Positions 2,406 to 36,321 of a DNA stretch of 43,283 nucleotides are shown one piece after another. A program made the translations under genes and the position numbers. Location of the stretch: NCBI GenBank assembly GCA_030745695.1, contig JASLOB010000014.1:1-43283 (forward strand). Direction: 5' to 3'. The DNA comes from Candidatus Nanoarchaeia archaeon. Lineage in GTDB: Archaea; Nanobdellota; Nanobdellia; SCGC-AAA011-G17; JACPNG01. Below the pieces are notes generated by a model that searched no databases, had not been told where the DNA came from, and saw nothing but the letters and a program-made list of their open reading frames with translations. Numbering within the stretch: the first letter of the stretch is position 1; each line of letters opens with the position of its first letter.

Positions 2406-2870
2406 ATGGCAAAAAAAACAAAGAAAGATACAGAAACAAAAGAATTAATTGAAAAGATGCAAAGATTGCAAGCTGAATTTGATAATTATAAGAAATATTT
2501 AGATAAGGAAAAGCAAGAATTTGTTAGATATGCTAATCATGAATTACTATTAAAATTATTAAATATTGCAGATAGTTTTGAGTTAGCTCTTAAAAGTAAA
2601 GAAGAAAATAAAGATTTTATTAAAGGAATAGAATTAATTTATGCTCAACTTTTTTCATTATTAGAGAAAGAAGGATTAATAAAAATAAAAACTAAAGGAG
2701 AAAAATTAAATCCTGAACTTCATGAAGTTATGTTAACAGAAAATGGTAATGAAGATAATATAATTCTAGAAGAGATACAAAGTGGATATATGATTAATGA
2801 TAAAGTATTGAGATGTGCAAAAGTAAAAGTAAGTAAACAACTGGACGGAAAAGATGAACATAGAAGATAG
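2406..2870 (+). CDS. grpE: nucleotide exchange factor GrpE
   Basis: 154 aa. Coiled N-terminus followed by HELLLKLLNIADSFELAL and a GrpE-like C-terminal beta domain. Lies just upstream of dnaK. Confidence 0.85.
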   Translation: MAKKTKKDTETKELIEKMQRLQAEFDNYKKYLDKEKQEFVRYANHELLLKLLNIADSFELALKSKEENKDFIKGIELIYAQLFSLLEKEGLIKIKTKGEKLNPELHEVMLTENGNEDNIILEEIQSGYMINDKVLRCAKVKVSKQLDGKDEHRR

Positions 2871-3117
2871 GTTATATGGTATAAAACTTGAAGCTCAAGC
2901 AGACGCTATATTTGAAAAAGCAAACTATAGTTATAATAGAGTGGAAGAAACTGAAGATGTCTCACAAAAACTAGAATATCTTGAATATGCAGAAAAATTA
3001 TATATTGCAATATTAAGAAAATGGAGAGATAATCATAGAAATAATCAAAGAGAAATAGGTAAAAAAATTAGATCAATTAAATCAATTAGAAAAGAGTTAG
3101 GAGGACAAAATGAGTAA
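2854..3117 (+). CDS. hypothetical small helical protein between grpE and dnaK
   Basis: 87-aa ORF that overlaps the grpE 3' end by 17 nt and the dnaK start by 8 nt. No motif recognised. Confidence 0.4.
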
Positions 3118-4969
3118 AATATTAGGAATAGATTTAGGAACATCAAATTCAGCAGCTGCTATAATCCAAGCTGGAAGACCAACAATAGTACCAAGTGCAG
3201 AAGGTGCATCATTATATGGAAAAGCATTTCCAAGTGTTGTAGCATTTAATAATGGATCAGTATTAGTAGGAGAACCAGCTAAAAGACAAGCAGTTTCAAA
3301 CCCAAAAAATACAATAATGGCTGCAAAAAGAAAAATGGGTTCAGGTTTTAAATATGAAATAGATAATAAAGAATACACTCCTCAACAAATTTCTGCTTTT
3401 ATTCTACAAAAAATAAAGAAAGATGCAGAAGAATTTTTAGGGGAAAAAATAGAAAAAGCAGTTGTTACAGTTCCTGCTTATTTTGATGATGATCAAAGAC
3501 AAGCAACAAAAGATGCAGGAAAAATAGCTGGGTTGGATGTTGTAAGAATAATTAATGAACCAACAGCTGCATCTTTAGCTTATGGATTAGATAAAAAAGA
3601 AAAAGAACAAAAGATTTTAGTATTTGATTTTGGTGGTGGAACATTAGATGTAACAATAATGGAGTTTGGGGATGGAGTTTTTGAAGTTAAATCTACTTCT
3701 GGAGATACGCAATTAGGTGGAACAGATATGGATGAAACAATAATGAAACATATTCTTGAAAATTTCCAAAAAGAAACAGGAATAGATGTAAATGATGATC
3801 CAACTGCTCTTCAAAGAGTAAGAGAAGCTGCAGAAAAAGCTAAAATTGAATTGTCTACTACATTAGAAACTGATGTTAATCTACCATTTATCTCTGCAAC
3901 AGATAAAGGTCCTAAACATTTAAACATGAAGTTAACAAGAGCAGAACTAGAAAGATTAGTTGATTCAACTGTTAATAAATGTAAGAAAGCTTTAGAACAA
4001 TCATTAAAAGATTCTAAATTAACTAGTAAAGATATTGATAAAGTAATTTTAGTTGGTGGACCTACAAGAATGCCAATTGTAAGAAAATTTGTAGAAGATT
4101 TTATTGGAAAAGAATCTGAAAGAGGGGTAGATCCAATGGAATGTGTTGCAAATGGTGCAGCAGTACAAGGAGGAGTGTTAGCTGGAGATGTTAAAGATGT
4201 ATTATTATTAGATGTTACACCATTAACATTAGGAATAGAAACATTAGGTGGAATAAAAACTCAATTAATTGAGAGAAATACTACAATTCCAACTAAAAAA
4301 TCTCAAGTTTTCTCAACAGCAACAGATAATCAGCCAGCTGTAACTATTAATGTATTACAAGGAGAAAGAGAGATGGCTTCCGATAACAAAAGTTTAGGAA
4401 GATTTGAATTAACAGGATTGCCTCCAGCTCCTAGAGGGGTTCCTCAAATTGAGGTTGCATTTGACATAGATGCTAATGGAATTATTAATGTTAATGCAAA
4501 AGATATGGGAACTGGAAAAGAACAAACAATTAAGATTACTGCATCTCAAAAATTAGATGAGAAAGAAGTAGAAAAAATGAAGAAAGATGCTGAAAAATAT
4601 GCTGAAGAAGATAAAAAAAGAAAAGAAGACATTGAAGTAAGAAATAACGCAGACACTACTATATACACTACTGAAAAAATGATCAAAGATCAAGGTGACA
4701 AAATAGATAGAGAAACTAAAGATAAGATAGAAAAAGAAATTAATGAATTAAAAGAAACAGTAAAAGAAAATAATACAGAAAAAATAAAAGCTAAATTAGA
4801 AGAGGTTAACAAAGTAGCTCAAGAAATTGGTACAAAAATGTATCAAGAAGCTATGAAAGAACAACAAGAAAAGGCTAAAACAGAAGATAAAAAAGAAACT
4901 AAAGATAAAGAAAAAGTAGTTGACGCTGAAGTTGTTGATGAAAAAGAAGGAAAGAAAGAAAAAAAATAA
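3110..4969 (+). CDS. dnaK: molecular chaperone DnaK (Hsp70)
   Basis: 619 aa with Hsp70 signatures [18 protein letters not shown] and [11 protein letters not shown], plus a K/E-rich C-terminal tail. Confidence 0.97.
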
Positions 4970-6567: not shown

Positions 6568-7089
6568 TTATATTTTAAAATCCTTATGAACTTGTGAAGG
6601 TTTTGGGCCAATACTATTTTGATATTTTCCATGATATAAAACTATTTTTCCTTTTGGAACCCAGAAGCTTATTTGTCCAATCAACATTCCAGGATATAAT
6701 TTTATATTTTTAGTTGCATACAACTGAAAAGTTACGTTTCCTATAGAACCTAGGTCAATTAAATCAGCAGTAATATGTACAAATAAACCTAATCTTGCTA
6801 TTCCTGATTTGGCATGTATTAATGGTACTAATTTTTTACTTCCTACTATTTCTTTACTATGTCCTAAAATAAAATCTCCTTTTTTTAATAATAATCCTTT
6901 TTTTGGTATTTTTTTAATTTTATATTTATTTTCTATTGCAGGATCTAAAATTTTATTAATATAAGTTAAATATTCACTTCCTAATGTTAAATCATAAGAA
7001 TTTGTAGTAATATTTTTATGATTAAATGGTTTAATAATAATATTTCCTTTTCTGACTTGTTTTTTTATTTCTTCTCCAGTTAGTATCAT
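6568..7089 (-). CDS. dCTP deaminase/dUTPase-superfamily protein with catalytic Glu replaced by Gln
   Basis: 173 aa. MILTGEEI N-terminus, AKSGIARLGL (compare GRSSLARLGL), IDLGSIGNVTFQL (compare IDPGWSGCIVLEF) and GMLIGQISFW. Confidence 0.7.
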   Translation of the reverse strand: MILTGEEIKKQVRKGNIIIKPFNHKNITTNSYDLTLGSEYLTYINKILDPAIENKYKIKKIPKKGLLLKKGDFILGHSKEIVGSKKLVPLIHAKSGIARLGLFVHITADLIDLGSIGNVTFQLYATKNIKLYPGMLIGQISFWVPKGKIVLYHGKYQNSIGPKPSQVHKDFKI

Positions 7090-7595
7090 TTTAATCCTCT
7101 TAACTTAGATTGTTTAGGTTTATTATATTTTGAATAACTTTTTCTGTAAGGGATTATGTTGCCATAGTTATCCCAAAAAGAAATTTGTCCTATGATCATA
7201 TTTGGATAAATCCTAAGTGATTTTGCAGAGACCAATTCTAAGGTCCAAGAATGTTTAGAACCAGTATGCCCTAGATTTGCTGATACTTGTAAAAACAATC
7301 CCAACCTCCCTAATGAACTTCTACCAATTAGACTCATAGCATACTTTTTGCTACCAAGGATTTCATATGTGCTTGCTAGATATATTTGATGAGGTTTAAG
7401 AACAAAACCTTTCTTAGGAATTTTTTCCTTTTTCATTCTACTTTTAGAAAAAACAACTATTTCTTCTCCTATTCTATAATTATAACTATTAGGATTTATT
7501 TGATTTTTATTGAAAGGAGTGATAGTTATATTTGATTTTTTAATCTCTTTTATTATTTCATCTCCTGTCAATATCACTTTAGAACAACTCCACAT
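7086..7595 (-). CDS. dcd: dCTP deaminase-like protein
   Basis: 169 aa with GRSSLGRLGL, WTLEL (catalytic Glu kept) and NMIIGQISFW. An alternative GTG start at 7577 would give VILTGDEI and remove the overlap with the upstream gene. Confidence 0.75.
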   Translation of the reverse strand: MWSCSKVILTGDEIIKEIKKSNITITPFNKNQINPNSYNYRIGEEIVVFSKSRMKKEKIPKKGFVLKPHQIYLASTYEILGSKKYAMSLIGRSSLGRLGLFLQVSANLGHTGSKHSWTLELVSAKSLRIYPNMIIGQISFWDNYGNIIPYRKSYSKYNKPKQSKLRGLK

Positions 7596-8394
7596 ACCTC
7601 TTAGGATAGATACTTTTCCTATATCTCAACACTAAAACAGTATAACCTTGGTATGGTCTTAGGCTATTAGACATCTTCTTAATTTCTAATAGCCGATTAT
7701 ACATAGAATCGTATAATTCTTTACTATCAATTTTTTTCTCTTTACAAACTCTTTGAATTGTGCTATGACAATAATGTTCTAATTCCTCATCAGTTTCTTG
7801 TAATAGGTCATTTCTTTCTTCGTATAATATCTCAAGACCTTTATACATTTTGGTTATATTCTTATATGAATCTATAGTCGGAAGAATATCAAAAACTTTT
7901 TCAAATTTAGAAATCAAACTTTCAGGGATTGGTGATTTAATATAAAATGGTGAAGCTAAAATAAATCCTCCCTCTTCTAAATATCCAATACATTTTTTTA
8001 ACATTTCTTCAGGTCTAGGAAAAAACTTTAATGATGCCCCAAGAATAATATGTGTGAATTTTTCCTTTGTTTCGAACTTATAACCATCTTCTACAGAATA
8101 ATCAATTTTAATTTTAGAGGCATATTCCTTTTTATTTTCAATTGCTGCTTCCACAGATTTTTTGGAGATATCAAATGCTTTTCCTTTACAATCACTTATT
8201 AATGCCAACTCTCTTGAAGAAAAACCAGTAGAACATGCTACTTCTAAGATATTAGAATCTTTATTCAAATTAGAAAAGACTTTCCATTTAGACAGAGTAT
8301 TAAATGAGCCAGGAAGAACATTCCATTGATTGATAAAACCAACAAAATCAGTATAAGACATTTTCTCAATATCTTCAATTGTTGTCTCTTCCAT
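7579..8394 (-). CDS. class I SAM-dependent methyltransferase
   Basis: 271 aa. Motif I-like ILEVACSTGFSS followed by an acidic residue (AFD), with a Rossmann-type layout. Confidence 0.7.
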   Translation of the reverse strand: MEETTIEDIEKMSYTDFVGFINQWNVLPGSFNTLSKWKVFSNLNKDSNILEVACSTGFSSRELALISDCKGKAFDISKKSVEAAIENKKEYASKIKIDYSVEDGYKFETKEKFTHIILGASLKFFPRPEEMLKKCIGYLEEGGFILASPFYIKSPIPESLISKFEKVFDILPTIDSYKNITKMYKGLEILYEERNDLLQETDEELEHYCHSTIQRVCKEKKIDSKELYDSMYNRLLEIKKMSNSLRPYQGYTVLVLRYRKSIYPKRYVELF

Positions 8395-8395
8395 T

Positions 8396-9484
8396 TTATA
8401 TTACTCCTGCTTCAATTATCTTTATTTCTTTATTTTTTGCATCTAACTTGATTTTGATTCCATAAGGAATTGTCATCATAGGCATTATATGGCCAAATTG
8501 TAAATTTGTTGCGATAACTAAATCTTCTCTCCCATATTCTTTTGCTACTTCAAGTAAAGCACGTTCATATTTTTCAAAATTCTGTAAATGTTTTTTTAAT
8601 TTAATTTCATATTCACTATCATCAAATTCAATATCTCCTCCAGGGATTCCGAAAATAATTCCATTTATCTTATTTAAAATTCCTTGTGCACCATAGTTTC
8701 TTAGCCAATATTTAAATTGGTTTGGAGAGGGGATATCTTCAGAAGTCTCTAAGAATAAGATTGTGTTATTCCATGCAGATTCATTTGGCCATAATTTCGT
8801 TCCTTTAATAATCTCTAAAACATCTGCACAACCACCTATCAAATTTCCTTCTACCTCTCCTTTGCCTTGGATAAATTTAATTTGTACAGGCTCTTGCATT
8901 TTTCTTTTAATATCTTGATATTCTTTTTTCCAAGGAACTCTATCTAATGTCCAGCCTTCTTCATTATTTTTTATACCGCCTATAGGTTTTTCTGAAAAAA
9001 GGGCTTTCTCAAAATATTTTTTTGTAAAATCATCTATTCCACCATTTTCTGCAAATCCAAATAATACTGAAGGTCCATAAAAAGATAAAAGGCCTGCCTT
9101 TAAACATAAGAGATGGGTAACTGTACTATCAGAAAAACCAATAAATATTTTTGGATTATTTTTTATGATAGCTAAATGTTCTTCTTTTAAGAAATCTAAT
9201 AGTCTTATGGAATCATCCCCTCCAATTATTGAGATAATTGCTTTAACTTCAGGATTTTTAAATGCCCAAATTAAATCATTTAATCTTTCTTCAGGATGTG
9301 AATATATCCAATCAGGAGATTTTAATGCATTAGGTGTTTCTATAACTTTTAATTTAAAAGTTTCTTCTAACTGTCTTTTTCCAGTTTCATACTTATCCTT
9401 ATACTCAAAAGCGCCACCCCAAGATAAAGTAATAAATGCTACAGTATCTCCTTCTTTGAGTTTTTTTGGTTTAATGTAATCCAT
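8396..9484 (-). CDS. S66-family serine peptidase (LD-carboxypeptidase / MccF-like)
   Basis: 362 aa. GDTVAFITLS, IIGGDDS, GFSDST (nucleophile Ser), LFLETSE and FGH, matching the Ser-Glu-His triad layout. Length is nearer MccF than LdcA. Confidence 0.75.
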   Translation of the reverse strand: MDYIKPKKLKEGDTVAFITLSWGGAFEYKDKYETGKRQLEETFKLKVIETPNALKSPDWIYSHPEERLNDLIWAFKNPEVKAIISIIGGDDSIRLLDFLKEEHLAIIKNNPKIFIGFSDSTVTHLLCLKAGLLSFYGPSVLFGFAENGGIDDFTKKYFEKALFSEKPIGGIKNNEEGWTLDRVPWKKEYQDIKRKMQEPVQIKFIQGKGEVEGNLIGGCADVLEIIKGTKLWPNESAWNNTILFLETSEDIPSPNQFKYWLRNYGAQGILNKINGIIFGIPGGDIEFDDSEYEIKLKKHLQNFEKYERALLEVAKEYGREDLVIATNLQFGHIMPMMTIPYGIKIKLDAKNKEIKIIEAGVI

Positions 9485-9500
9485 TTTTATATTTTCCTAA

Positions 9501-10451
9501 TTATTGGTGTTGAAAATCTAGATCTCTACTAATCTCCACACCTAATCTTTTATCAAATTCTAATTGGAGAAAGTTCCTTAAAACACTTTCGCTCCATCTT
9601 GTAGATAAACTAAATGTATGTTGTAATAAAGAAATATTTCTCAAAATTTTATCTTTTTCAGTTTTATGCCTCTCCCCCATTAGATTAGATGGAATGCTTA
9701 ATATTGCCCCTAAACTTGAATAATTATCTAGTAATGTTTTAAAACAAAGATGTTTTTCTTCAATAGCATCATAAATAGACCAGGCACTATACACTTTATT
9801 ATTATTTTTTCTAGATAAAAAAGTTTCTGCTCCAAACCCAAATTCATAACCAATTAACTCCCCACTTGAATCTTGAATTTGAATTAATTGGCCAATTTCT
9901 TGAGGGTCATTTTCTCTTTGTAAAAGAGTAAAAGTTGCACCCCTACCAATTATACCTTCTAATCCATATCCCCATTGATAATAGATTTTTGGATTCGAAT
10001 CATTGGTTACTTCAATAGTTTTTCCAATTTCATCTAGGAATTCCATATCTTTTTGAGCATAAACTCTAACATCTCTAGGAGATATTGAATAACTCCCTAA
10101 TAAAAGTTCGAGTATTTCTAATTGAATTTCTCTTTTTGGCTTTCCTGTTAGAATACCTAGGGCATTAAAATAACCTAAAAATCTTTCAGGTACTAATTCT
10201 AATTTATTTTCCTCACATATTGTATCTCTTAATCCTTGAAGCCTTAAAGATGGCTGTCTCATACAAAGACCTTGTTCAGGAATATTTCTCTCTACTAAAA
10301 ATGATTTCCAAGGAGTTATAGTATCATTAGTAAATAGAATAGTTTCATCATCTGTTATCAATTCAGAAGAGGGAGAAATAGTGTATTCTCTTGATTCAAA
10401 ATATCTTAAAAATTGTCCAATTATTTTGTCTAGATCAGATTTTATTTTCAA
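9501..10451 (-). CDS. stand-alone, degenerate alanyl-tRNA synthetase catalytic-core paralogue
   Basis: 316 aa, colinear with the AlaRS N-terminus. FLRYFESREYTISPSSELITDDETILFTN compares with FLxFFxxKGHxxxxSxxLvPxxDPtLLFTN. MRQPSLRLQG compares with QRCVRAGG, EIGQLIQIQD with EIWNiVFMQF, and YEFGFGAETF with VDTGMGLERI. Most substrate-contacting motifs are substituted, and the editing and C-Ala domains are absent. Confidence 0.6.
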   Translation of the reverse strand: MKIKSDLDKIIGQFLRYFESREYTISPSSELITDDETILFTNDTITPWKSFLVERNIPEQGLCMRQPSLRLQGLRDTICEENKLELVPERFLGYFNALGILTGKPKREIQLEILELLLGSYSISPRDVRVYAQKDMEFLDEIGKTIEVTNDSNPKIYYQWGYGLEGIIGRGATFTLLQRENDPQEIGQLIQIQDSSGELIGYEFGFGAETFLSRKNNNKVYSAWSIYDAIEEKHLCFKTLLDNYSSLGAILSIPSNLMGERHKTEKDKILRNISLLQHTFSLSTRWSESVLRNFLQLEFDKRLGVEISRDLDFQHQ

Positions 10452-11998
10452 CCCAATAATCTCCTTATTCTATCTTTATCTTTTGATGACCAAAAATAAG
10501 TAGGGAGTCTAGGACCGTTATTTTTCCCAAATAATAATTGATAAACATCTTTAAAGAAACTCCTTTGAGCTATTTTCTTTTCTTGATCAGACATACCTTC
10601 TCTTTTTGGTATGCTATATATCTCTAATTCAATTTCATCTAAAGTTAGACCATCTTGAGATAGGACTTTCTTTTCAAGAGATCTAATTTTTTCTCTTGCA
10701 TCTGCTGACATTAAAGATAAATGAGAAGTATTAGGAGAATCTCTTAGCTCACTTCTCCCTTCTGAAAAGTGAGTTCTTGACCAATAATCACTTTTTTTAA
10801 GCCTATCTTCAATTGAAAAATCACTAAATTCTCCACCTTCAGATCTAAGAAGATCTTTAATAATTTCTAAGTTATAACCTGTAGCTTCCCCCAATCCAAA
10901 TATTTTTCTAAAAGGTATACTTCTAGACAATTCACTTTTTGTTTTTTCAGTAATTAATTTTCTGAATCCTTCTTCCCATCCTTCAACATCTGAATCAAAT
11001 TCTGCAAATGCTCTAATTACATCTTTATCTAAAGCGATATCTAAAGGAGCAGTTGGAGAACATCTAGCATATAAAAATTTTATCAACTCAGGAGGATATA
11101 CATTTAATAATTCTCCAGGTGTAATAACATTTCCAGAAGAACTTGACATTTTCCCTGCTTGTCCTTTTATTCTTACAAATTGATATTCTTGAAAATGTGG
11201 AGGTGAATTTTCAAATATTTCTTTGACTATTTGACTTGAAACATCATAACTACTTCCAGGACTCGCATGATCTGCCCCACCTGGTTCAAAATTTACAGAT
11301 TCAAAAACCCACCTCATAGGCCAATCAATCTTCCATGGTAATTTGATTACTCTATCTTTTGTAAAATCTATAGTATCTTTTTTACCAGAGTCGTGACATA
11401 AATATGTTAACTTACTATCACCATCATATGATAGAACTTTTGTGTTGTCTTTACCTGTAAATCTTGAATAAAGAACAATAGGAAAATAATTCTTTTTTTG
11501 TTCTTCAGTCATTCCCTGAGTCATATTCCTTGCTAAAATCTCTGCAATTTGACTTCTTTTATTTAATATTTCTTTAATTTGGAGATCATATTCTCCACTT
11601 TTATACATCTCTGTTTGTCTTATAAATCTTGGATTAATACCTAATTGAGATAAAGACTCCTCAAATTTTACTTCAAATCTTTCAGCATATGATTCATATT
11701 CTCCAAACGGATCATCTATTGAAGAATATGGTTTTCCAATTGAATTTTCAAGAGATTTAGGACTTCCAATAGGTATCTTTCTAAATTTATCAAAATCGTC
11801 CCAAGAAAATATAAATTCAGAATCAATTCCTTTTTGTTGTAATGCCCTATAAACTAACTCTGTGGTCATAACCTCCCTTAGGTTTCCAATATGTATTGGT
11901 CCAGATGGACTAATTCCTGAAGCACAAACTATCTTGCTCCCTCTGTGTTTCATTGCTAATCTATCTGCTATTTTGTAGGCCCAATGGCTATTTCCCAT
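10448..11998 (-). CDS. lysS: lysine--tRNA ligase, class I (archaeal type)
   Basis: 516 aa. HWAYKIADRL start, SPSGPIHIGNLREV (HIGH region) and GKMSSSSGN (KMSKS). Its stop overlaps the downstream start by 4 nt. Confidence 0.9.
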   Translation of the reverse strand: MGNSHWAYKIADRLAMKHRGSKIVCASGISPSGPIHIGNLREVMTTELVYRALQQKGIDSEFIFSWDDFDKFRKIPIGSPKSLENSIGKPYSSIDDPFGEYESYAERFEVKFEESLSQLGINPRFIRQTEMYKSGEYDLQIKEILNKRSQIAEILARNMTQGMTEEQKKNYFPIVLYSRFTGKDNTKVLSYDGDSKLTYLCHDSGKKDTIDFTKDRVIKLPWKIDWPMRWVFESVNFEPGGADHASPGSSYDVSSQIVKEIFENSPPHFQEYQFVRIKGQAGKMSSSSGNVITPGELLNVYPPELIKFLYARCSPTAPLDIALDKDVIRAFAEFDSDVEGWEEGFRKLITEKTKSELSRSIPFRKIFGLGEATGYNLEIIKDLLRSEGGEFSDFSIEDRLKKSDYWSRTHFSEGRSELRDSPNTSHLSLMSADAREKIRSLEKKVLSQDGLTLDEIELEIYSIPKREGMSDQEKKIAQRSFFKDVYQLLFGKNNGPRLPTYFWSSKDKDRIRRLLG

Positions 11999-12534: not shown

Positions 12535-12554
12535 TTCTTCCCCACGGCCGGATT
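12535..12554. repeat. 20-bp direct repeat (proximal copy) covering the tRNA-Tyr 3' end plus 4 nt downstream
   Basis: Identical to 6485-6504. Positions 12539-12554 are the discriminator, acceptor 3' strand, T-stem 3' strand and part of the T-loop. Confidence 0.8.
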
Positions 12555-12666
12555 CGAACCAGCAACCTTCCGGGACCGGCTGACTTATTTTCATCCAAAG
12601 CCGAATGCTTAGTCAATAAGTGAATTCATCTACAGCCGAACGCTCTACCAGTTGAGCTACGTGGGG
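12539..12666 (-). tRNA. tRNA-Tyr (anticodon GUA) with a ~55-nt intron in the anticodon loop; CCA not encoded
   Basis: Hand fold of the reverse complement: acceptor CCCCACG/CGTGGGG with A73; D arm GCTC-AACTGGTA-GAGC; anticodon stem TTCGG/CCGGA; loop CTGTAGA; variable AGGTT; T arm GCTGG-TTCGAAT-CCGGC. Mature length is 73 nt. C1-G72 is the archaeal/eukaryal Tyr identity pair. Confidence 0.85.
12574..12628 (-). other. tRNA-Tyr intron (boundaries ambiguous by 1 nt: 37/38 or 38/39)
   Basis: 55 nt lie between the anticodon loop and the CCGGA 3' strand. Internal helices ACTTATT/AATAAGT and TCGGCT/AGCCGG are possible. I could not fit a clean bulge-helix-bulge by eye. Confidence 0.6.
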
Positions 12667-13817: not shown

Positions 13818-15230
13818 TCATCTTTCTTTTGTACTAAAATAAGTTAATTTATTTGAGTAAACTTCTACAATCTTTCCTTTTCTTTTATATCTTACTTTAG
13901 CTCTAGGCAGAACTAATTTTCCTACAATATGTAATTGAGATTCAATTTCATATGAAATAACTCTTTCCTCTCCATCTAACAATTCTTTTAGAGTCCATAA
14001 CATCCTAATCCCTCTTCCACCCCTTTGCATTTTAGCTGGTTTTAATGTACCAAATTCATGTTTAGGTTTTACAAGATTAGGAGCTATATCAATGATCTCA
14101 ACATCCTTTAGATTAGTTAATCTATTTTTTATGTGTAATAAAACTTTAATTTCAGATATTCCACCTTTATCATCTTTTACTTTAAATACTGCTTTTTTTA
14201 CTGAAACTTTTTTTCCATATAAATAATAAACAACAATTGAAAATACTAATAAAACTATGATGAAAATAAATATTGATCTATAATCTGTTTCAGCTGTGAT
14301 GTTAAAAGATTCTCCAGGTTGTAACTCAAAATTCCATTCTACATTTCCATTATCAATTTTATCTGGGTCAATGTTATAAGTTGTAAACATTCTTTTAAAT
14401 CCATTTAATTCAACAACAAAAGCTTCTTTTACTTTTAAATTCCCATTATTTGATTTAACTAAATTAATTGTAGAAGTCAAAAATCCTGAATCTTTCTCAG
14501 ATTTTTCATTAATATTTGGATTTCTTATAATTTTAAAATCCTTAACAAAAGATCCTCTCAATTTATTTTCTTGTGTAGCAGTTATGATTAATGTATAATC
14601 CCCAGGACTTGTTATGGGTGGAATCTCAAATTCTATTGTTTTTATTGTTTCTTGATAAGGAAATAATTTTAATTTTAATTCTTCTTTAAATAGTTCACTT
14701 TCTATCAAAATTATTACATCTTCTAAAATCACATTTATTTTATTTTTAAGTTCTATGTTAATAGATGATTTTCTTCCAGGTACAATTTCATCTAAAATAT
14801 TTGAGGTTATCTCAACTAATTGTTCAGGAGGTATAACACTTACTATTAAATCATGATCTGTTTTATGATTGGGGTTTGATGATGATCTTATCCTCACAAA
14901 TGTTCTATAACTTTTATCTGGCTTTATATCTTCTCTTAATCTTACTCTTACTAAAGTTTTCTCTACAGAATTTGCTTTAATCTGTAAAGTTCCTTCTTCT
15001 ATATCAATATTTTCAAATATATCTGAGAAAGGGGCAACTGAAAATTCATCTGGAGTAACAAAAAAAGTATCTGCTACATTTTGATTGTTTCTAACACTTA
15101 ATTCAAATACTCCAGTTCCACCAGGATAAACTTTATCTATTAAAGATTGGTCTGTAACGTATAATCTTTGTGAATATACATTTGGTGTTAATAAAAGAAT
15201 TACTATCAATAGAATTACTATCTTTCTCAT
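13818..15230 (-). CDS. secreted/membrane-anchored protein with beta-sandwich-like repeats
   Basis: 470 aa. N-terminal signal peptide, one TM helix (IFIFIIVLLVFSIVVYYLY) near residue 330, and a ~120-aa C-terminal domain. Confidence 0.5.
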   Translation of the reverse strand: MRKIVILLIVILLLTPNVYSQRLYVTDQSLIDKVYPGGTGVFELSVRNNQNVADTFFVTPDEFSVAPFSDIFENIDIEEGTLQIKANSVEKTLVRVRLREDIKPDKSYRTFVRIRSSSNPNHKTDHDLIVSVIPPEQLVEITSNILDEIVPGRKSSINIELKNKINVILEDVIILIESELFKEELKLKLFPYQETIKTIEFEIPPITSPGDYTLIITATQENKLRGSFVKDFKIIRNPNINEKSEKDSGFLTSTINLVKSNNGNLKVKEAFVVELNGFKRMFTTYNIDPDKIDNGNVEWNFELQPGESFNITAETDYRSIFIFIIVLLVFSIVVYYLYGKKVSVKKAVFKVKDDKGGISEIKVLLHIKNRLTNLKDVEIIDIAPNLVKPKHEFGTLKPAKMQRGGRGIRMLWTLKELLDGEERVISYEIESQLHIVGKLVLPRAKVRYKRKGKIVEVYSNKLTYFSTKER

Positions 15231-25704: not shown

Positions 25705-26916
25705 ATGCAAGAAAGAGTAACAAAAGCAGTAATAACAGCAAGCTACAATGATGATGGCAAAGAAAGTCCTATTAGAGATAAAGTTATGTATCAAGCACAA
25801 AAAGAAAGAGAAAAAGGCTATAAATTTCTTAATCATCTTATTTTAAGGGACACTAAAGACCATAGAGTTACTAAATTTAATCTTTTATTAGCTGAAATCC
25901 CTATAATCTCTCATGTTTTGTATAACGCATCTAGAACCTCTTTAGAAGAAATAACAGTTGTAGGAGATGAAGTAACAAAAACTAATGTAGGGGCTTTCTC
26001 AGAATATTTTAAAGATTCAAGATTTAGATATGTTGATGAAGGTCCTCCAGAAGAATGGAAACTTTCAGAAACATTAAGAAAAGGAGATTCTGGAGGTCAA
26101 GTAGTATTAACTTTAATGGGTGATTTGCCTTTAGCATGGAACCTAGAACATATTTTACATGACCCAGACATCCCTAACTATGATGCAATTTTTGATCTTA
26201 ATACTAAAAGAAAAGTTGGAAAACATTTTCCAAGATACTACCATTTTAGGATAAGACATAAAGGAGTTAACTGGCTTGCAAAAGAACCCAATCTTTATTT
26301 AATGGACATAGGAAAGATAGAATATGTAGCAGATTTAATGTATAGTGGTAGAAAAACTAATATGGGTGAAGGGAGATGGAAACTATTTGAAAAATTATTT
26401 ATTGAAAATGGTAAGTGGAAAATTACATTAGATGGATTGGGTAAAGTATATTCAGCTCAAATAGCTTTTAATTTAATAGCAGGAAGAGAACTACTTTTAA
26501 AACCAGAAAAAATTCAAAAAGTAATAAATGATTTAGCTGGTATAAAAACAAGATTTAAAGCAGACAATAATCAACCAGGAACATTAGAAGATATAGATTC
26601 TTTAGAAGACTGGGCTTATATTTATGATATGTTGTCAGAAGCAAAAGATAAATATTATCCTTATTTTTCAAAATTAAGAAAATTTTCAGAAGATGTTATG
26701 CCTGAACTTAAAAGAAAACATGAATTTTATTATGGTTTTAAGGATTATATGAATTCTTTATTTAAAGAATATGATCTTCTAGAGCCTTTTGTTAGGAAGG
26801 GTGTATTTGAAAATCCATTTACCTCCAATAAAATAGACTCTTCTACAAGGAATAGAGTAAAAAGAATGATGAAACTTAATATTTTAGCCCATGGAAGATA
26901 TAATAGAAGATTTTAG
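25705..26916 (+). CDS. MobA-like NTP-transferase-fold protein with a long C-terminal extension
   Basis: 403 aa. KAVITAS start, VVLTLMGDLPL and LEDIDSLEDW resemble the GT-A nucleotidyltransferase layout. Weak call. Confidence 0.4.
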   Translation: MQERVTKAVITASYNDDGKESPIRDKVMYQAQKEREKGYKFLNHLILRDTKDHRVTKFNLLLAEIPIISHVLYNASRTSLEEITVVGDEVTKTNVGAFSEYFKDSRFRYVDEGPPEEWKLSETLRKGDSGGQVVLTLMGDLPLAWNLEHILHDPDIPNYDAIFDLNTKRKVGKHFPRYYHFRIRHKGVNWLAKEPNLYLMDIGKIEYVADLMYSGRKTNMGEGRWKLFEKLFIENGKWKITLDGLGKVYSAQIAFNLIAGRELLLKPEKIQKVINDLAGIKTRFKADNNQPGTLEDIDSLEDWAYIYDMLSEAKDKYYPYFSKLRKFSEDVMPELKRKHEFYYGFKDYMNSLFKEYDLLEPFVRKGVFENPFTSNKIDSSTRNRVKRMMKLNILAHGRYNRRF

Positions 26917-34204: not shown

Positions 34205-34531
34205 TTATTGATTAGATTCCCTTAAATGCATTAATCCAACTAAAAAAGATAAAGCAGCAATTGGGATAATCATTAGTTCTATTCCTAAATAAAACAGATC
34301 AAATGGTATTATCTCTAATTTACTTGAGATAGACTCAAAAATATTTAAAGAAGAAGATAAATCAAAAGCTATTACAATAGTTATAAAAAACAATCCTATC
34401 AAAACTAAGTTTAATACCTCTTTAATATTCTCTTTTTTCTCAAATTTTTTTGATTTAATCATTAAAAAAATAGCAATTATTATTAAAATAAAAGACATTA
34501 TATCTATTCCAAAAAGAATTTCATTTATCAT
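34205..34531 (-). CDS. small integral membrane protein
   Basis: 108 aa with three TM helices. It overlaps the upstream gene by 4 nt. Confidence 0.45.
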   Translation of the reverse strand: MINEILFGIDIMSFILIIIAIFLMIKSKKFEKKENIKEVLNLVLIGLFFITIVIAFDLSSSLNIFESISSKLEIIPFDLFYLGIELMIIPIAALSFLVGLMHLRESNQ

Positions 34532-36321
34532 ATTCTTGACTTTCTCCTTTGAAGTTTTAACTCTTCCCTTTCATCTTCAAATTTTTCTTCACGATCTTCT
34601 AATCTATCTAATCTATCATAATATTGTTTTCTTTTTAATTTTAGTTTTTTCCATTCATTTTCTAATGTTTTTTTATCTTTATTTATTGTAGATCTATAAG
34701 AATCTAATCTACTCGTATCTCTATTTAATTTATTCTGTTTAATATCAATATCTTTGTATCTTTTTCTATCATTATCAAGTTTTTTCCTCATATCTTGTAT
34801 TTTTTTTGATTCTTTTTCTAATCTACTTTCTTCTTTTTTTAATTTTTTATTGAATTTCTCTAAATTATCTCTCTCTTCTTCTAACTCATCTTCTCTACCA
34901 TAAAATTCATTTTCTTTTTTTGATAAGTTATCCTCTCTTTGTTTTGATTTTAACTTTAAGTTATTCAAATCTTCTTTATCTTCTAACAAATCTTCTCTAT
35001 CTTCATGTAGTCTATCTTGATCTTTTAAAAGTCTATTTTTAGATTTATTCAATGATTTTTCTTCTTGCTTAATCAATGATCTTCCATAAACTAAACTTTC
35101 TTTTAATTCATCTAATTTTTTAAATTCTAATTCTAATTTTTTCTTTACTTCTTCTATCTTTTTATTTTCTGACTCTAAATTTTGTTTAGATTTATGTATT
35201 TTTTTATTTTCTGAAGTTATTTGTGAATTTAGATCTTCAACCTCTTCCTTCTTGTCTTCTAATTCATCTTCTAAACTAATAACTTTGTCTTCTCTTTGTC
35301 TTAACTTTAATTTTAGATTGTTAAAAGATTCTTTATCACTTAATAGAACTTCTTTGTCTTCATACAACCTATCTTGATCTGTCCATAACTTATCTTTAGT
35401 CTTATTTAACCTTTTTTCCTCTTGTTTAATAAATAATTTGTCATTAGACAAACTCTCTTTTAATGTTTTTAATTTTTTATTTTCTGACTCTAAACTTTGT
35501 TTTGATTTCTCTACTTTTCTCTTTTCTGATTCTATTTGTAGATTTAAATCTTCAACTTCATCTTTTTTATCTTCTAAATCACCCTCTAAATTTACAACTT
35601 TTTTTGTTCTTTGCTTTAAATCATCTAAAACATTCTTTTCTTTTTCTTTTAAACTGTCTAATCTAGGTCTAATATTTTTTTCTTCTCTTTCTAGTTTCCT
35701 TCTCTCAGATTTTATTGTTGATTCTTGTTTGTTTGAATCTTCTTTCTTTTGGTCTAATGATAATCTTTCTTTATTCAATTCTCTTTCTCTATCTCTAAAT
35801 GATTTTCTTTCTTCTTTTATCTTTTCTAATCTTACTTCTAATTTTTTACTACTTTCTTCTATAACTTTTTTTTCAACCCTAATCTTAGTTCTTTCTTTCT
35901 CTAATGATTTTTTCTCTCTTTCTAATCTTCTTATTTCAGGCATTATTATTTGTCTATCTATCTCATCTTTCATTGGATTATCTACATTTGGATCTAATAA
36001 TCCTTCTACTTGTAATTTTCTTTGATCACTATTTATCTTAAACTCTCTACTTGTAAAAGCAACCAATCCCAATAATATTATGAATTGCAAGCTAGATTGT
36101 AATGGCAATCTTACTAAATCTAGACTAGGGAAAAAAGAAAAAGCTCTCACAATAAAAACTAATCCTAATAACATAGAAAAAGTTACAATATTTTTAAGTT
36201 TAAACAAGTCTTCCTTACCTTGATTCTTTAGATTAAACCAGAGTAATACAGCTATTAAGAACAGTATAGAATAGATAAAACCTTGATAACTAGCTAATTG
36301 ATTTAATACTTCTAACACCAT
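34528..36321 (-). CDS. membrane-anchored long coiled-coil protein
   Basis: 597 aa. Three N-terminal TM helices followed by about 490 aa of K/E/R-rich heptad-like sequence. Confidence 0.6.
   Translation of the reverse strand: MVLEVLNQLASYQGFIYSILFLIAVLLWFNLKNQGKEDLFKLKNIVTFSMLLGLVFIVRAFSFFPSLDLVRLPLQSSLQFIILLGLVAFTSREFKINSDQRKLQVEGLLDPNVDNPMKDEIDRQIIMPEIRRLEREKKSLEKERTKIRVEKKVIEESSKKLEVRLEKIKEERKSFRDRERELNKERLSLDQKKEDSNKQESTIKSERRKLEREEKNIRPRLDSLKEKEKNVLDDLKQRTKKVVNLEGDLEDKKDEVEDLNLQIESEKRKVEKSKQSLESENKKLKTLKESLSNDKLFIKQEEKRLNKTKDKLWTDQDRLYEDKEVLLSDKESFNNLKLKLRQREDKVISLEDELEDKKEEVEDLNSQITSENKKIHKSKQNLESENKKIEEVKKKLELEFKKLDELKESLVYGRSLIKQEEKSLNKSKNRLLKDQDRLHEDREDLLEDKEDLNNLKLKSKQREDNLSKKENEFYGREDELEEERDNLEKFNKKLKKEESRLEKESKKIQDMRKKLDNDRKRYKDIDIKQNKLNRDTSRLDSYRSTINKDKKTLENEWKKLKLKRKQYYDRLDRLEDREEKFEDEREELKLQRRKSRI
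34927..35598 (-). repeat. intragenic tandem duplication (units of about 105 and 119 aa) in the coiled-coil gene
   Basis: Residues 242-346 (VVNLEGDLEDKKDEVEDLNLQIESEKRKVEKSKQSLESENKKLK...) align with residues 347-465 (VISLEDELEDKKEEVEDLNSQITSENKKIHKSKQNLESENKKIE...). Confidence 0.8.

Follow-up and report, generated by a model that had tools for sequence, protein, structure and literature searches.

A diverged alanyl-tRNA synthetase core as a candidate aminoacyl transferase in an apparently mobile gene cassette of DPANN archaea and bacteria

Described relatives of the locus

AcmF, an alanyl-tRNA synthetase (AlaRS)-like enzyme of the ascamycin pathway in Streptomyces sp. 80H647, is an aminoacyl-tRNA-dependent transferase (Zheng et al., 2024, ACS Catal 14:3533; PMC12945691). 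Most of the residues that serve ATP binding and alanine activation are missing from this truncated, AlaRS-like protein, and its active-site changes are reported as ‘N219Q and D232E’ (PMC12945691). Without forming an adenylate, AcmF N-acylates the amino group of a nucleoside sulfamate from Ala-tRNA-Ala; the acceptor is bound by R93, E216, and Q219 and the alanyl amino group by E232 (PMC12945691). The donor Ala-tRNA-Ala comes from AcmD, an additional AlaRS that is encoded in the same cluster and is more resistant to the product (PMC12945691). The subject of the present work is a 316-residue AlaRS-like protein encoded on contig JASLOB010000014.1 of a Candidatus Nanoarchaeia archaeon, a stretch of 43,283 nucleotides that was analyzed at its full length and is called the window below. 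With a probability of roughly 0.55, this protein no longer charges tRNA-Ala and is instead an AcmF-like aminoacyl transferase, the bond-forming enzyme of a mobile cassette that would make, and shield its host against, a microcin C- or ascamycin-like aminoacyl-nucleotide that inhibits aminoacyl-tRNA synthetases (aaRSs) and protein synthesis.

A second point of comparison is microcin C, in which MccD, an S-adenosylmethionine (SAM)-dependent 3-amino-3-carboxypropyl transferase, decorates the phosphoramidate (PMC10491745). Genes resembling those of the microcin C (mcc) system surround the AlaRS-like gene of the window and are described further below.

The third comparison is with AlaRSs that have been shortened in nature. 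The alpha subunit of the split AlaRS of Nanoarchaeum equitans (NEQ547) is an ordinary archaeal AlaRS fragment that aligns along its length with E. coli AlaRS368N, and a 368N-like fragment binds and charges the acceptor end of an RNA helix without recognizing G3:U70 (PMC11392972). This subunit, the Tupanvirus mini-AlaRS, and the window protein are all naturally shortened forms, of which the first two are genuine alanine-activating, tRNA-charging enzymes. In contrast, the window protein has lost the motif-3 Arg, carries changes at both amino-acid-binding residues, and belongs to a cassette found in organisms that own a normal AlaRS.

A stand-alone AlaRS catalytic core

A preliminary description of this DNA had reported an open reading frame (ORF) of 316 codons at this site (Table 1) that is colinear with the N-terminal part of AlaRS, and both statements stand. 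Alignment by hhalign to residues 1–461 of E. coli AlaRS places residues 6–215 of the protein on AlaRS residues 4–248 with a probability of 95.4% (E = 1.6e-8). An AlphaFold2 model of the protein scored a pLDDT of 88 and a pTM of 0.86, and the top 16 Foldseek matches in the PDB are all AlaRS catalytic fragments (E ~2e-12, TM 0.66–0.72), with the bacterial glycyl-tRNA synthetase alpha subunit next. The class II fold is shared with canonical bacterial AlaRS (E. coli, A. aeolicus) at ~17% sequence identity. The ORF encodes a conserved, highly diverged AlaRS catalytic core.

Ordinary searches barely detect this relationship. The Pfam family tRNA-synt_2c (PF01411) matches residues 12–73 only, at 30.0 bits and below its cutoff of 30.3, and the TIGR00344 alaS model gives 22.6 against a cutoff of 457. 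A single-sequence phmmer search of the PDB reaches E = 0.13, and full-length E. coli AlaRS used as a tblastn query finds no match in the window. The gene is too diverged for single-sequence searches, so that only profile and structure methods work.

Close homologues are few, numbering 16–17 among 5.8 billion proteins; they are 319–333 aa long, and one is annotated ‘alanine--tRNA ligase-related protein [Nanobdellota archaeon]’. An alignment of 16 sequences retains 45 invariant columns at 36–70% identity to the window protein, the mark of a gene under selection and not of a decaying fragment, and purifying selection on the family is strong. A profile built from these 16 members matches the AlaRS catalytic fragment of A. 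aeolicus with E = 1.8e-9, whereas archaeal AlaRS (A. fulgidus) reaches only E = 0.16–0.2. When 1.84 billion representatives were searched with a profile, at least 1,114 clusters (50% identity) were returned at E <= 1e-3, and among the best 150 of these nearly all are stand-alone proteins of 300–430 aa.

The bacterial relatives are longer (360–430 aa) than members of the DPANN clade, which have ~90 aa after the core. That no further domains follow the core, as first described, holds for the editing domain and the C-Ala domain of canonical AlaRS, both of which are absent; the model does, however, show ~90 helical residues after the core, and the AlaRS helical domain is thus partly retained. The protein stops inside this domain, and the position of AlaRS Asp400, which serves G3:U70 recognition, lies beyond its end. 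A proposed likeness between IPSN of the window protein and AlaRS PSNENRGY is not borne out: ‘PSN’ is not conserved among the homologues, and neither is its Asn, which matches the G3:U70-recognition residue Asn303.

The start of the gene also differs from the first account, which had it overlap the lysS stop as ATGA. Since lysS ends in GGT TGA and the AlaRS-like gene begins TTG AAA ATA, the start codon is TTG and the overlap, read from the sequence, is TTGA (10451–10448). A Shine-Dalgarno-like AAGGAG, also read directly, lies 9 nt before this TTG, within the end of lysS.

The possibility that the protein is a divergent alpha subunit of a split AlaRS of the N. equitans type, charging tRNA-Ala together with a beta subunit encoded elsewhere, was raised in the preliminary description. 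Its length is near that of an E. coli 368N-like alpha fragment, and the host, with an intron-containing tRNA and a Nanobdellota homologue, is a DPANN archaeon, a group in which split AlaRS is known. Yet the same family occurs in the same cassette in Pseudomonas, Burkholderia, Streptomyces, and others, and the profile favors bacterial (1.8e-9) over archaeal (0.16) AlaRS. The motif-3 Arg, N212, and D235 are all replaced, the alaS score is far below the cutoff, and no beta-like ORF was found in the window, where ORFs of at least 400 aa were scanned and tblastn was run with full-length E. coli AlaRS. With just 16–17 close homologues in 5.8 billion proteins, the family cannot be the general AlaRS of DPANN archaea. 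Genome matches include Pseudomonas batumici, Pseudomonas sp. FEN, Burkholderia lata, Photorhabdus viridis, Micavibrio, Bdellovibrionaceae, Flavobacteriales, and Patescibacteria, and Streptomyces venezuelae and many more Patescibacteria are further carriers. Free-living bacterial carriers must have a normal AlaRS of their own. The split-AlaRS reading is effectively excluded for the family and is given almost no weight here. The first judgment that this is not a normal AlaRS is upheld, both by the protein itself, with its alaS score far under the cutoff, its missing motif-3 Arg, the exchanges N212 to Q and D235 to E, and its end at 316 aa, and by family members in P. batumici, B. lata, and S. 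venezuelae, which must own an AlaRS.

An altered amino acid site beside a retained nucleotide pocket

E. coli AlaRS is numbered here without the initiator Met (one is added when counting from Met1), and residues are paired by hhalign. The window protein keeps R70 of motif 2 (E. coli R69), the adenine-stacking F95 (F90), W160 (W170), E185 (E209), G205 (G237), G207 (G239), and E209 (E241). Both amino-acid-binding residues are changed, Q188 standing for N212 and E203 for D235, and the motif-3 Arg (R242) is lost to T210. The motif pairings of the first reading are reproduced (NAGM/NDTI, RCVRAGG/PSLRLQG, FFEMLG/GYFNALG, EIWN/EIGQ, and VDTGMGLER/YEFGFGAET), as is the alignment of the alanine-binding Asp, D235, with a Glu, which is Glu203. 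Its statement that nearly every substrate-contacting motif is changed applies to N212, D235, and R242 but goes too far otherwise, as the equivalents of R69, F90, W170, E209, G237, G239, and E241 are kept across the family.

Within the DPANN clade, T210, Q188, and E203 are invariant or nearly so. In the wider superfamily, sampled by 157 representatives, R70 is found in 155, F95 in 156, and E203 in 138; at position 188, N (109) outnumbers Q (43), and T occupies position 210 in 110. An Arg at position 214, one helical turn past the lost motif-3 Arg, is common (97/157). Judged from these alignments, the nucleotide pocket appears to be largely kept, with both amino-acid-holding residues one methylene longer and the triphosphate-binding Arg gone.

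This pattern resembles that of AcmF in several respects. Both proteins are truncated AlaRS-like forms without editing or C-Ala domains, and the pair of Asn to Gln and Asp to Glu exchanges at the two amino-acid-binding positions is common to them. The motif-2 Arg and an E-x-x-Q also recur, with AcmF R93/E216/Q219/E232 set against R70/E185/Q188/E203 of the window protein. The hairpin leading from this Gln to the Glu, that is from the EIWN strand to motif 3, is similarly short in both, at 15 residues in the window protein and 13 in AcmF against 23 in AlaRS. There are also differences: W100 and F104 of AcmF have no obvious counterpart at the same spacing in the window protein, and position 188 of the wider superfamily is mostly Asn, unlike the Gln of AcmF. 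The residue numbering of AcmF, scanned across 172 fetched proteins, gave no match; the S. venezuelae relative P0052 is a member of the AlaRS-like family and is not AcmF.

Class II paralogues that acylate acceptors other than tRNA include EpmA/PoxA, AsnA, and the amino acid:carrier-protein ligases. The window protein could likewise be an ATP-dependent amino-acid ligase that passes an aminoacyl-adenylate (or aminoacyl-NMP) to a non-tRNA acceptor such as a nucleotide amine, in which case the cassette context and product class would be the same as for AcmF-like transfer and only the donor would differ. Retention of R70, of the adenine-stacking F95, and of E/D185 speaks for such a ligase, as do R214, the mere stub of a tRNA-recognition domain that is kept in the DPANN proteins, and the existence of bacterial cassettes without an aaRS gene. 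Conversely, the motif-3 Arg that class II enzymes use for ATP is Thr in most of the superfamily, and AcmF, with the same N to Q and D to E changes, is reported to depend on Ala-tRNA and to form no adenylate. The repeated linkage to a complete lysyl-tRNA synthetase (LysRS) gene, described below, is also better explained by a need for aminoacyl-tRNA, though resistance alone could account for it. An ATP-dependent ligase is somewhat unlikely on this balance. The preliminary description had raised the possibility that a different acyl or amino acid substrate is ligated. This is no more than half right, as AcmF, the one characterized enzyme that shares the truncated architecture and the pair of exchanges, moves the aminoacyl group from aminoacyl-tRNA to a nucleoside amine without activating an amino acid with ATP.

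An operon with microcin C-type partners

Six closely packed genes on the minus strand (6568–11998) form an operon in which the AlaRS-like gene stands second; neighbors overlap or are separated by gaps of at most 16 nt. The first encodes a class I LysRS (Pfam tRNA-synt_1f, 7.6e-107; TIGR00467 lysS_arch, 380 bits against a cutoff of 148). The third encodes an S66 serine peptidase of the MccF type, known from microcin C self-immunity, whose PDB matches are the ‘MccC family protein’ Ba3275 of B. anthracis (E = 2.6e-97) and the MccF proteins of E. coli and B. anthracis (~1e-27); its match to the cell-wall LD-carboxypeptidase LdcA is partial only (5e-15). The fourth product is a SAM-dependent transferase whose sole PDB sequence match is MccD (5FCD; E = 3.7e-23, residues 2–257).

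The last two genes encode dCTP-deaminase-like proteins, DCD1 (Pfam DCD, 5.7e-29; TIGR02274, 78.7 bits, below the 92.8 cutoff) and DCD2 (Pfam DCD, 3.3e-34; TIGR02274, 102 bits), and both match Dcd structures in the PDB. In E. coli Dcd, the catalytic Glu, E138, is essential. Among the orthologues in the related loci (numbered L001 to L024 in this set), DCD1 has this Glu in 15/15 and DCD2 has Gln in 16/16, and given the role of the Glu, one subunit of the pair would seem to be active and the other unable to deaminate. Their joint conservation suggests an active/inactive hetero-oligomer or a new activity. RNA binding by the very basic DCD proteins of the window (pI ~10) was considered and dropped, as the basic charge is not conserved in the orthologues.

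The last four or five genes of the operon recur together across domains. One related locus (L001) has all six in the same order, though its AlaRS-like homologue is only 37% identical, and another (L004) has the same downstream genes; in both, the flanks differ from those of the window. When the six proteins were used as tblastn queries on the fetched loci, the AlaRS-like, MccD-like, and both DCD genes were found together, in shuffled order, in 15 distinct loci that span DPANN archaea, Pseudomonas, Burkholderia, Streptomyces, Patescibacteria, Flavobacteriales, and proteobacterial metagenome-assembled genomes. Cross-domain identity is 40–69% for the MccD-like transferase, 50–71% for the DCDs, and 26–51% for the AlaRS-like protein. 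By this distribution, the cassette is a horizontally mobile functional unit of Archaea and Bacteria.

Related cassettes add further genes. A pyridoxal phosphate (PLP)-dependent decarboxylase like the N-terminal domain of MccE is present in two (L016, L024), GNAT acetyltransferases in two (L021, L004), and major facilitator superfamily (MFS) exporters in three (L012, L015, L020). ATP-grasp ligase genes adjoin the AlaRS-like gene in five bacterial loci (L007, L011, L014, L015, L016), and L020 has three of them. Radical SAM, DUF1826, and M20 peptidase genes also occur, and the Streptomyces locus adjoins non-ribosomal peptide synthetase and polyketide synthase (NRPS/PKS) genes.

Two of these loci have noteworthy surroundings. 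In the archaeal locus L021 (8001..12764), the cassette and its GNAT gene directly follow a full-length gyrA and are followed by a 75-aa ORF of the gyrA C-terminal domain, so the cassette looks as if it had been inserted into the gyrA 3' end. In a Zambryskibacteria locus (L019, 3761..5923), a phenylalanyl-tRNA synthetase (PheRS)-alpha-like gene and an MvdD-type ATP-grasp peptide maturase lie just upstream of a cassette of the candidate phyla radiation (CPR) type; the former scores 218 bits with pheS_mito (cutoff 258) and 210 with the NCBIfam model ‘PheS-related mystery ligase SrmL’ (cutoff 300).

The MccD-like SAM transferase and the MccF-like S66 peptidase are common to the mcc system and the window operon, and the mcc-like PLP decarboxylase, GNAT acetyltransferase, and MFS exporter are found in related cassettes. 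Every accessory function of microcin C thus appears, by homology, to be represented somewhere among the cassettes. The expected product class is also that of microcin C, a non-hydrolysable aminoacyl-nucleotide that in bacteria is probably extended by a peptide. The bond-forming enzymes differ: the mcc system uses the ThiF/E1-like MccB, and the cassette a protein derived from AlaRS. No ThiF-family match was found among the six operon proteins, and the intergenic gaps of at most 16 nt leave no room for an MccA peptide gene. Any peptide part made by the bacterial cassettes would come from the ATP-grasp ligases, in contrast to that of microcin C, which comes from the ribosome. Conversely, mcc operons have no counterpart of the two dCTP-deaminase-like proteins.

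In relation to the ascamycin pathway, both acmF and the window gene adjoin a complete aaRS gene, which encodes AcmD, an AlaRS, in the former case and a class I LysRS in the latter. An aminoacyl-nucleoside inhibitor of aaRSs is the known product in the AcmF case and the expected one for the window cassette. The window pathway lacks sulfamate-forming genes and instead has the MccD-like, the MccF-like, and the two dCTP-deaminase-like genes.

A known anti-phage system finds no support from the PADLOC defense models, which left the AlaRS-like, S66, and DCD proteins unmatched and gave only a generic methyltransferase match (mad2). No homologue was found in plasmid and phage collections.

Recurrent linkage to aminoacyl-tRNA synthetase genes

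In the preliminary description, lysS figured as a mere neighbor. The wider context, which that account did not have, leads to lysS being judged functionally linked to a cassette that crosses domains. A class I LysRS gene lies directly upstream of the AlaRS-like gene in the window and in six further settings (L001, L004/L005, L013, L022, L024, L026); among the DPANN-type loci, only the archaeal L021 has the cassette without it. The LysRS gene of L023 is placed downstream of the cassette, and its product, of another LysRS lineage, is 31–34% identical to the others; the AlaRS-like protein of this locus is still 47% identical to that of the window. On its other side, the L024 cassette is flanked by a genuine class II LysRS, which matches LysRS structures at E = 3e-117.

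Seen from the LysRS, the association is equally close. The nearest relatives of the window LysRS (49–63% identity) are essentially the cassette-linked set, and five near relatives apparently lie on contigs of the AlaRS-like matches. Among further LysRS contexts that were looked up, L025 is the only one with no recognizable AlaRS-like gene in view; an unannotated 400-aa protein beside its LysRS was considered as a cryptic AlaRS-like protein and rejected, as it had no match to a hidden Markov model.

The partner is not always specific for Lys. In Patescibacteria, the order is an HD or HAD hydrolase, methyltransferase, AlaRS-like protein, S66 peptidase, and an asparaginyl-tRNA synthetase (AsnRS)-like core without anticodon domain, and the idea of an invariably Lys-specific partner was rejected for this CPR variant. 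Linkage to an aaRS or aaRS-like gene is recurrent, survives rearrangement and lineage replacement, and mirrors the AcmD–AcmF pair. As a separate observation, a 382-kb contig of P0237 (JGI 3300072015) carries two class I LysRS genes within 8 kb, which surround an S66 peptidase, a methyltransferase, an AsnRS-like core, and an Asp/AsnRS, with an HD hydrolase as well. This contig and L025 are aaRS-rich islands, both with an AsnRS-like core, a full Asp/AsnRS, an S66 peptidase, and a methyltransferase.

Methyltransferase-fold aminocarboxypropyl transferases that act on tRNA exist, as in Tyw2/Taw2. The cassette might accordingly act on tRNA or aminoacyl-tRNA (e.g. tRNA-Lys) as a modification, repair, or quality-control module. 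Such a module would use the AlaRS-like protein to bind the acceptor end, the MccD-like enzyme to add an aminocarboxypropyl or methyl group, and the DCD-like proteins to deaminate cytosine. The tight coupling of cassette and LysRS and the binding of the CCA end by AlaRS cores speak for it. The ATP-grasp ligases and MFS exporters of bacterial cassettes and the NRPS/PKS neighbors in Streptomyces are, however, hallmarks of the biosynthesis of small molecules, the S66 protein falls among MccF-type enzymes, which cleave aminoacyl-nucleotides, and the strong basic charge of the window DCDs is not shared by their orthologues. A role in tRNA maintenance is improbable for these reasons.

The clustering of extra aaRS copies nearby also fits a resistance island, not a biosynthetic one, in which the protein would be an inert, AlaRS-shaped decoy or immunity protein that sequesters a toxic aminoacyl-adenylate analogue. 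The protein retains its ligand-binding residues without the motif-3 Arg, and it co-occurs with the immunity-type genes S66 and GNAT. On the other hand, the AlaRS-like protein is the sole bond-forming candidate in the minimal five-gene cassette, and a pocket conserved in its entirety across more than 1,000 clusters, E203 and the G205/G207 loop included, is what one would sooner expect of a catalyst. MccD-like enzymes are biosynthetic, not immunity, components in microcin C, and the ATP-grasp and PLP-decarboxylase partners are most plausibly biosynthetic too. A decoy is likewise improbable.

A possible route to an aminoacyl-nucleotide

In the AcmF-like transfer favored here, an amine-bearing, nucleotide-derived acceptor would occupy the former AMP site, held by R70, by the stacking F95, and by E185/Q188. 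The aminoacyl end of an aminoacyl-tRNA would enter the former amino-acid site, where E203 would hold the alpha-amino group. Attack of the acceptor amine on the ester would then yield an N-aminoacyl nucleotide and free tRNA, with no ATP used. Preparing the acceptor, a (deoxy)pyrimidine nucleotide, would fall to the two DCD-like proteins and decorating the product to the MccD-like enzyme, and the cell would protect itself through the MccF-like peptidase, which would split the bond between aminoacyl group and nucleotide. The class I LysRS of the same operon could supply the donor, be the insensitive form of the target, or both, as AcmD does for AcmF. The fold, the residue pattern, the operon, and its linkage across domains are established; dependence on tRNA, the amino acid and acceptor used, and a role as inhibitor are inferred by analogy with AcmF.

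Bifunctional dCTP deaminase/dUTPases release ammonia and attack the alpha-phosphate. A Glu/Gln pair of DCD proteins could by the same means yield a (deoxy)uridine 5'-phosphoramidate. Such a compound is speculative; it would be isosteric with the sulfamate acceptor of AcmF and would give an N-acyl phosphoramidate of the microcin C type. Taken together, these steps would define an undescribed route to an aminoacyl-(deoxy)pyrimidine nucleotide, built from an AlaRS-derived transferase, MccD- and MccF-like enzymes, and a DCD pair, in which aminoacyl-tRNA acylates an amine generated by the DCD proteins and a portable LysRS is both donor enzyme and resistant target. This full scheme is put forward tentatively and is less probable than AcmF-like transfer as such.

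Several observations weigh against the AcmF-like reading. The likeness to AcmF was drawn from published residue numbers and architecture, not from an alignment. AcmF keeps the whole tRNA-recognition domain, in which E374 matters for activity, and in the window protein the core is followed by no more than ~90 aa; with this helical stub and an acidic isoelectric point (pI 5.1), tRNA binding is conjectural. A 368N-like AlaRS fragment does act on the acceptor end, and so a short helical domain is compatible with tRNA use. The motif-3 Arg is lost (T210), but the retained R70, F95, and E185, with R214 nearby, may still permit the use of ATP. The identity of the amino acid is equally ambiguous: the LysRS linkage points to Lys, but the conserved pocket of W160, I190, and G205 fits Ala, Gly, or Ser better and suggests a small residue, which is awkward beside a LysRS. 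Two bacterial loci (L006, L014) have an AlaRS-like gene without an MccD-like or DCD gene in the available flank, and in L014 it is paired with an ATP-grasp ligase. The DPANN operons have no exporter, and a literature search on dCTP deaminase, MccD/MccF, and AlaRS-like proteins found no paper that describes the cassette.

The kind of enzyme, an AlaRS-derived transferase, is already established by AcmF; what is new is the chemistry of the cassette and its presence in DPANN archaea and CPR bacteria. If the full scheme above is true, no antibiotic-type biosynthetic pathway would have been assigned to these two groups before it, and it would be a way to microcin C-like compounds that is independent of the ribosome and of MccB. 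AlaRS-derived transferases may be a large family, with at least 1,114 clusters reaching from Streptomyces and Pseudomonas to DPANN archaea and Patescibacteria, in place of a single case in AcmF, and the residue signature and gene context would provide a rule for finding them. The combination of microcin C accessory enzymes with an unrelated bond-former and a Glu/Gln DCD pair points to new nucleotide chemistry and new natural aaRS inhibitors. A cassette with a traveling class I LysRS in episymbionts of tiny genome size suggests that these organisms spend resources on self-protection or chemical warfare. Here an aaRS gene would also be seen to spread as a resistance or donor module, with a bearing on the old question of why class I and class II LysRS are so patchily distributed.

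Features of the window and its surroundings

Table 1. Positions of the operon genes and other features in the window
Feature	Position	Strand	Remarks
AlaRS-like protein	9501..10451	-	316 aa; TTG start; class II AlaRS-type core and ~90-aa helical domain; key residues R70, F95, W160, E185, Q188, E203, G205, G207, E209, T210
Shine-Dalgarno-like AAGGAG	10461..10466	-	upstream of the AlaRS-like gene
Class I LysRS	10448..11998	-	516 aa; first operon gene; TGA stop overlaps the next TTG start
S66 serine peptidase, MccF type	8396..9484	-	362 aa; Pfam Peptidase_S66 and S66C
SAM-dependent transferase, MccD type	7579..8394	-	271 aa; class I methyltransferase Pfam families
dCTP-deaminase-like protein 1 (DCD1)	7086..7595	-	169 aa; catalytic Glu kept, motif WTLEL
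dCTP-deaminase-like protein 2 (DCD2)	6568..7089	-	173 aa; Gln replaces catalytic Glu, motif T[F/L]QL
tRNA-Tyr(GTA)	12539..12666	-	intron of ~57 nt at 37/38; Rfam 54 bits, missed by ARAGORN; identity assigned by eye
Bacterial-type GrpE and Hsp70 (DnaK) genes	2406..4969	+
Antisense ORF	9165..9479	+	104 aa; inside the S66 peptidase gene
ORF without Pfam match	34528..36321	-	597 aa
ORF without Pfam match	13818..15230	-	470 aa
ORF without Pfam match	25705..26916	+	403 aa

The host is a marine DPANN archaeon. The window has a GC content of ~27% and a class I LysRS of archaeal type, and its sequence is found again in metagenomes of marine and seawater origin dated 2014 to 2023. A tRNA gene lies ~540 nt upstream of lysS on the same strand; it was considered as tRNA-Lys and rejected, since it reads tRNA-Tyr(GTA), and it has the archaeal C1–G72 pair. 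The 104-aa antisense ORF within the S66 peptidase gene is most likely a chance ORF in AT-rich DNA, and three long ORFs have no Pfam match at E <= 0.001 (Table 1). Elsewhere in the window are genes for nucleoside diphosphate kinase (NDK), Sua5/YrdC, a SAICAR-synthase-like protein, Mre11/Rad50, RNase J, glutamyl-tRNA synthetase (GluRS), and CorA. On a related archaeal contig (L026, 1019..3730), an RNase J homologue contains an intein with a LAGLIDADG endonuclease domain (Pfam).

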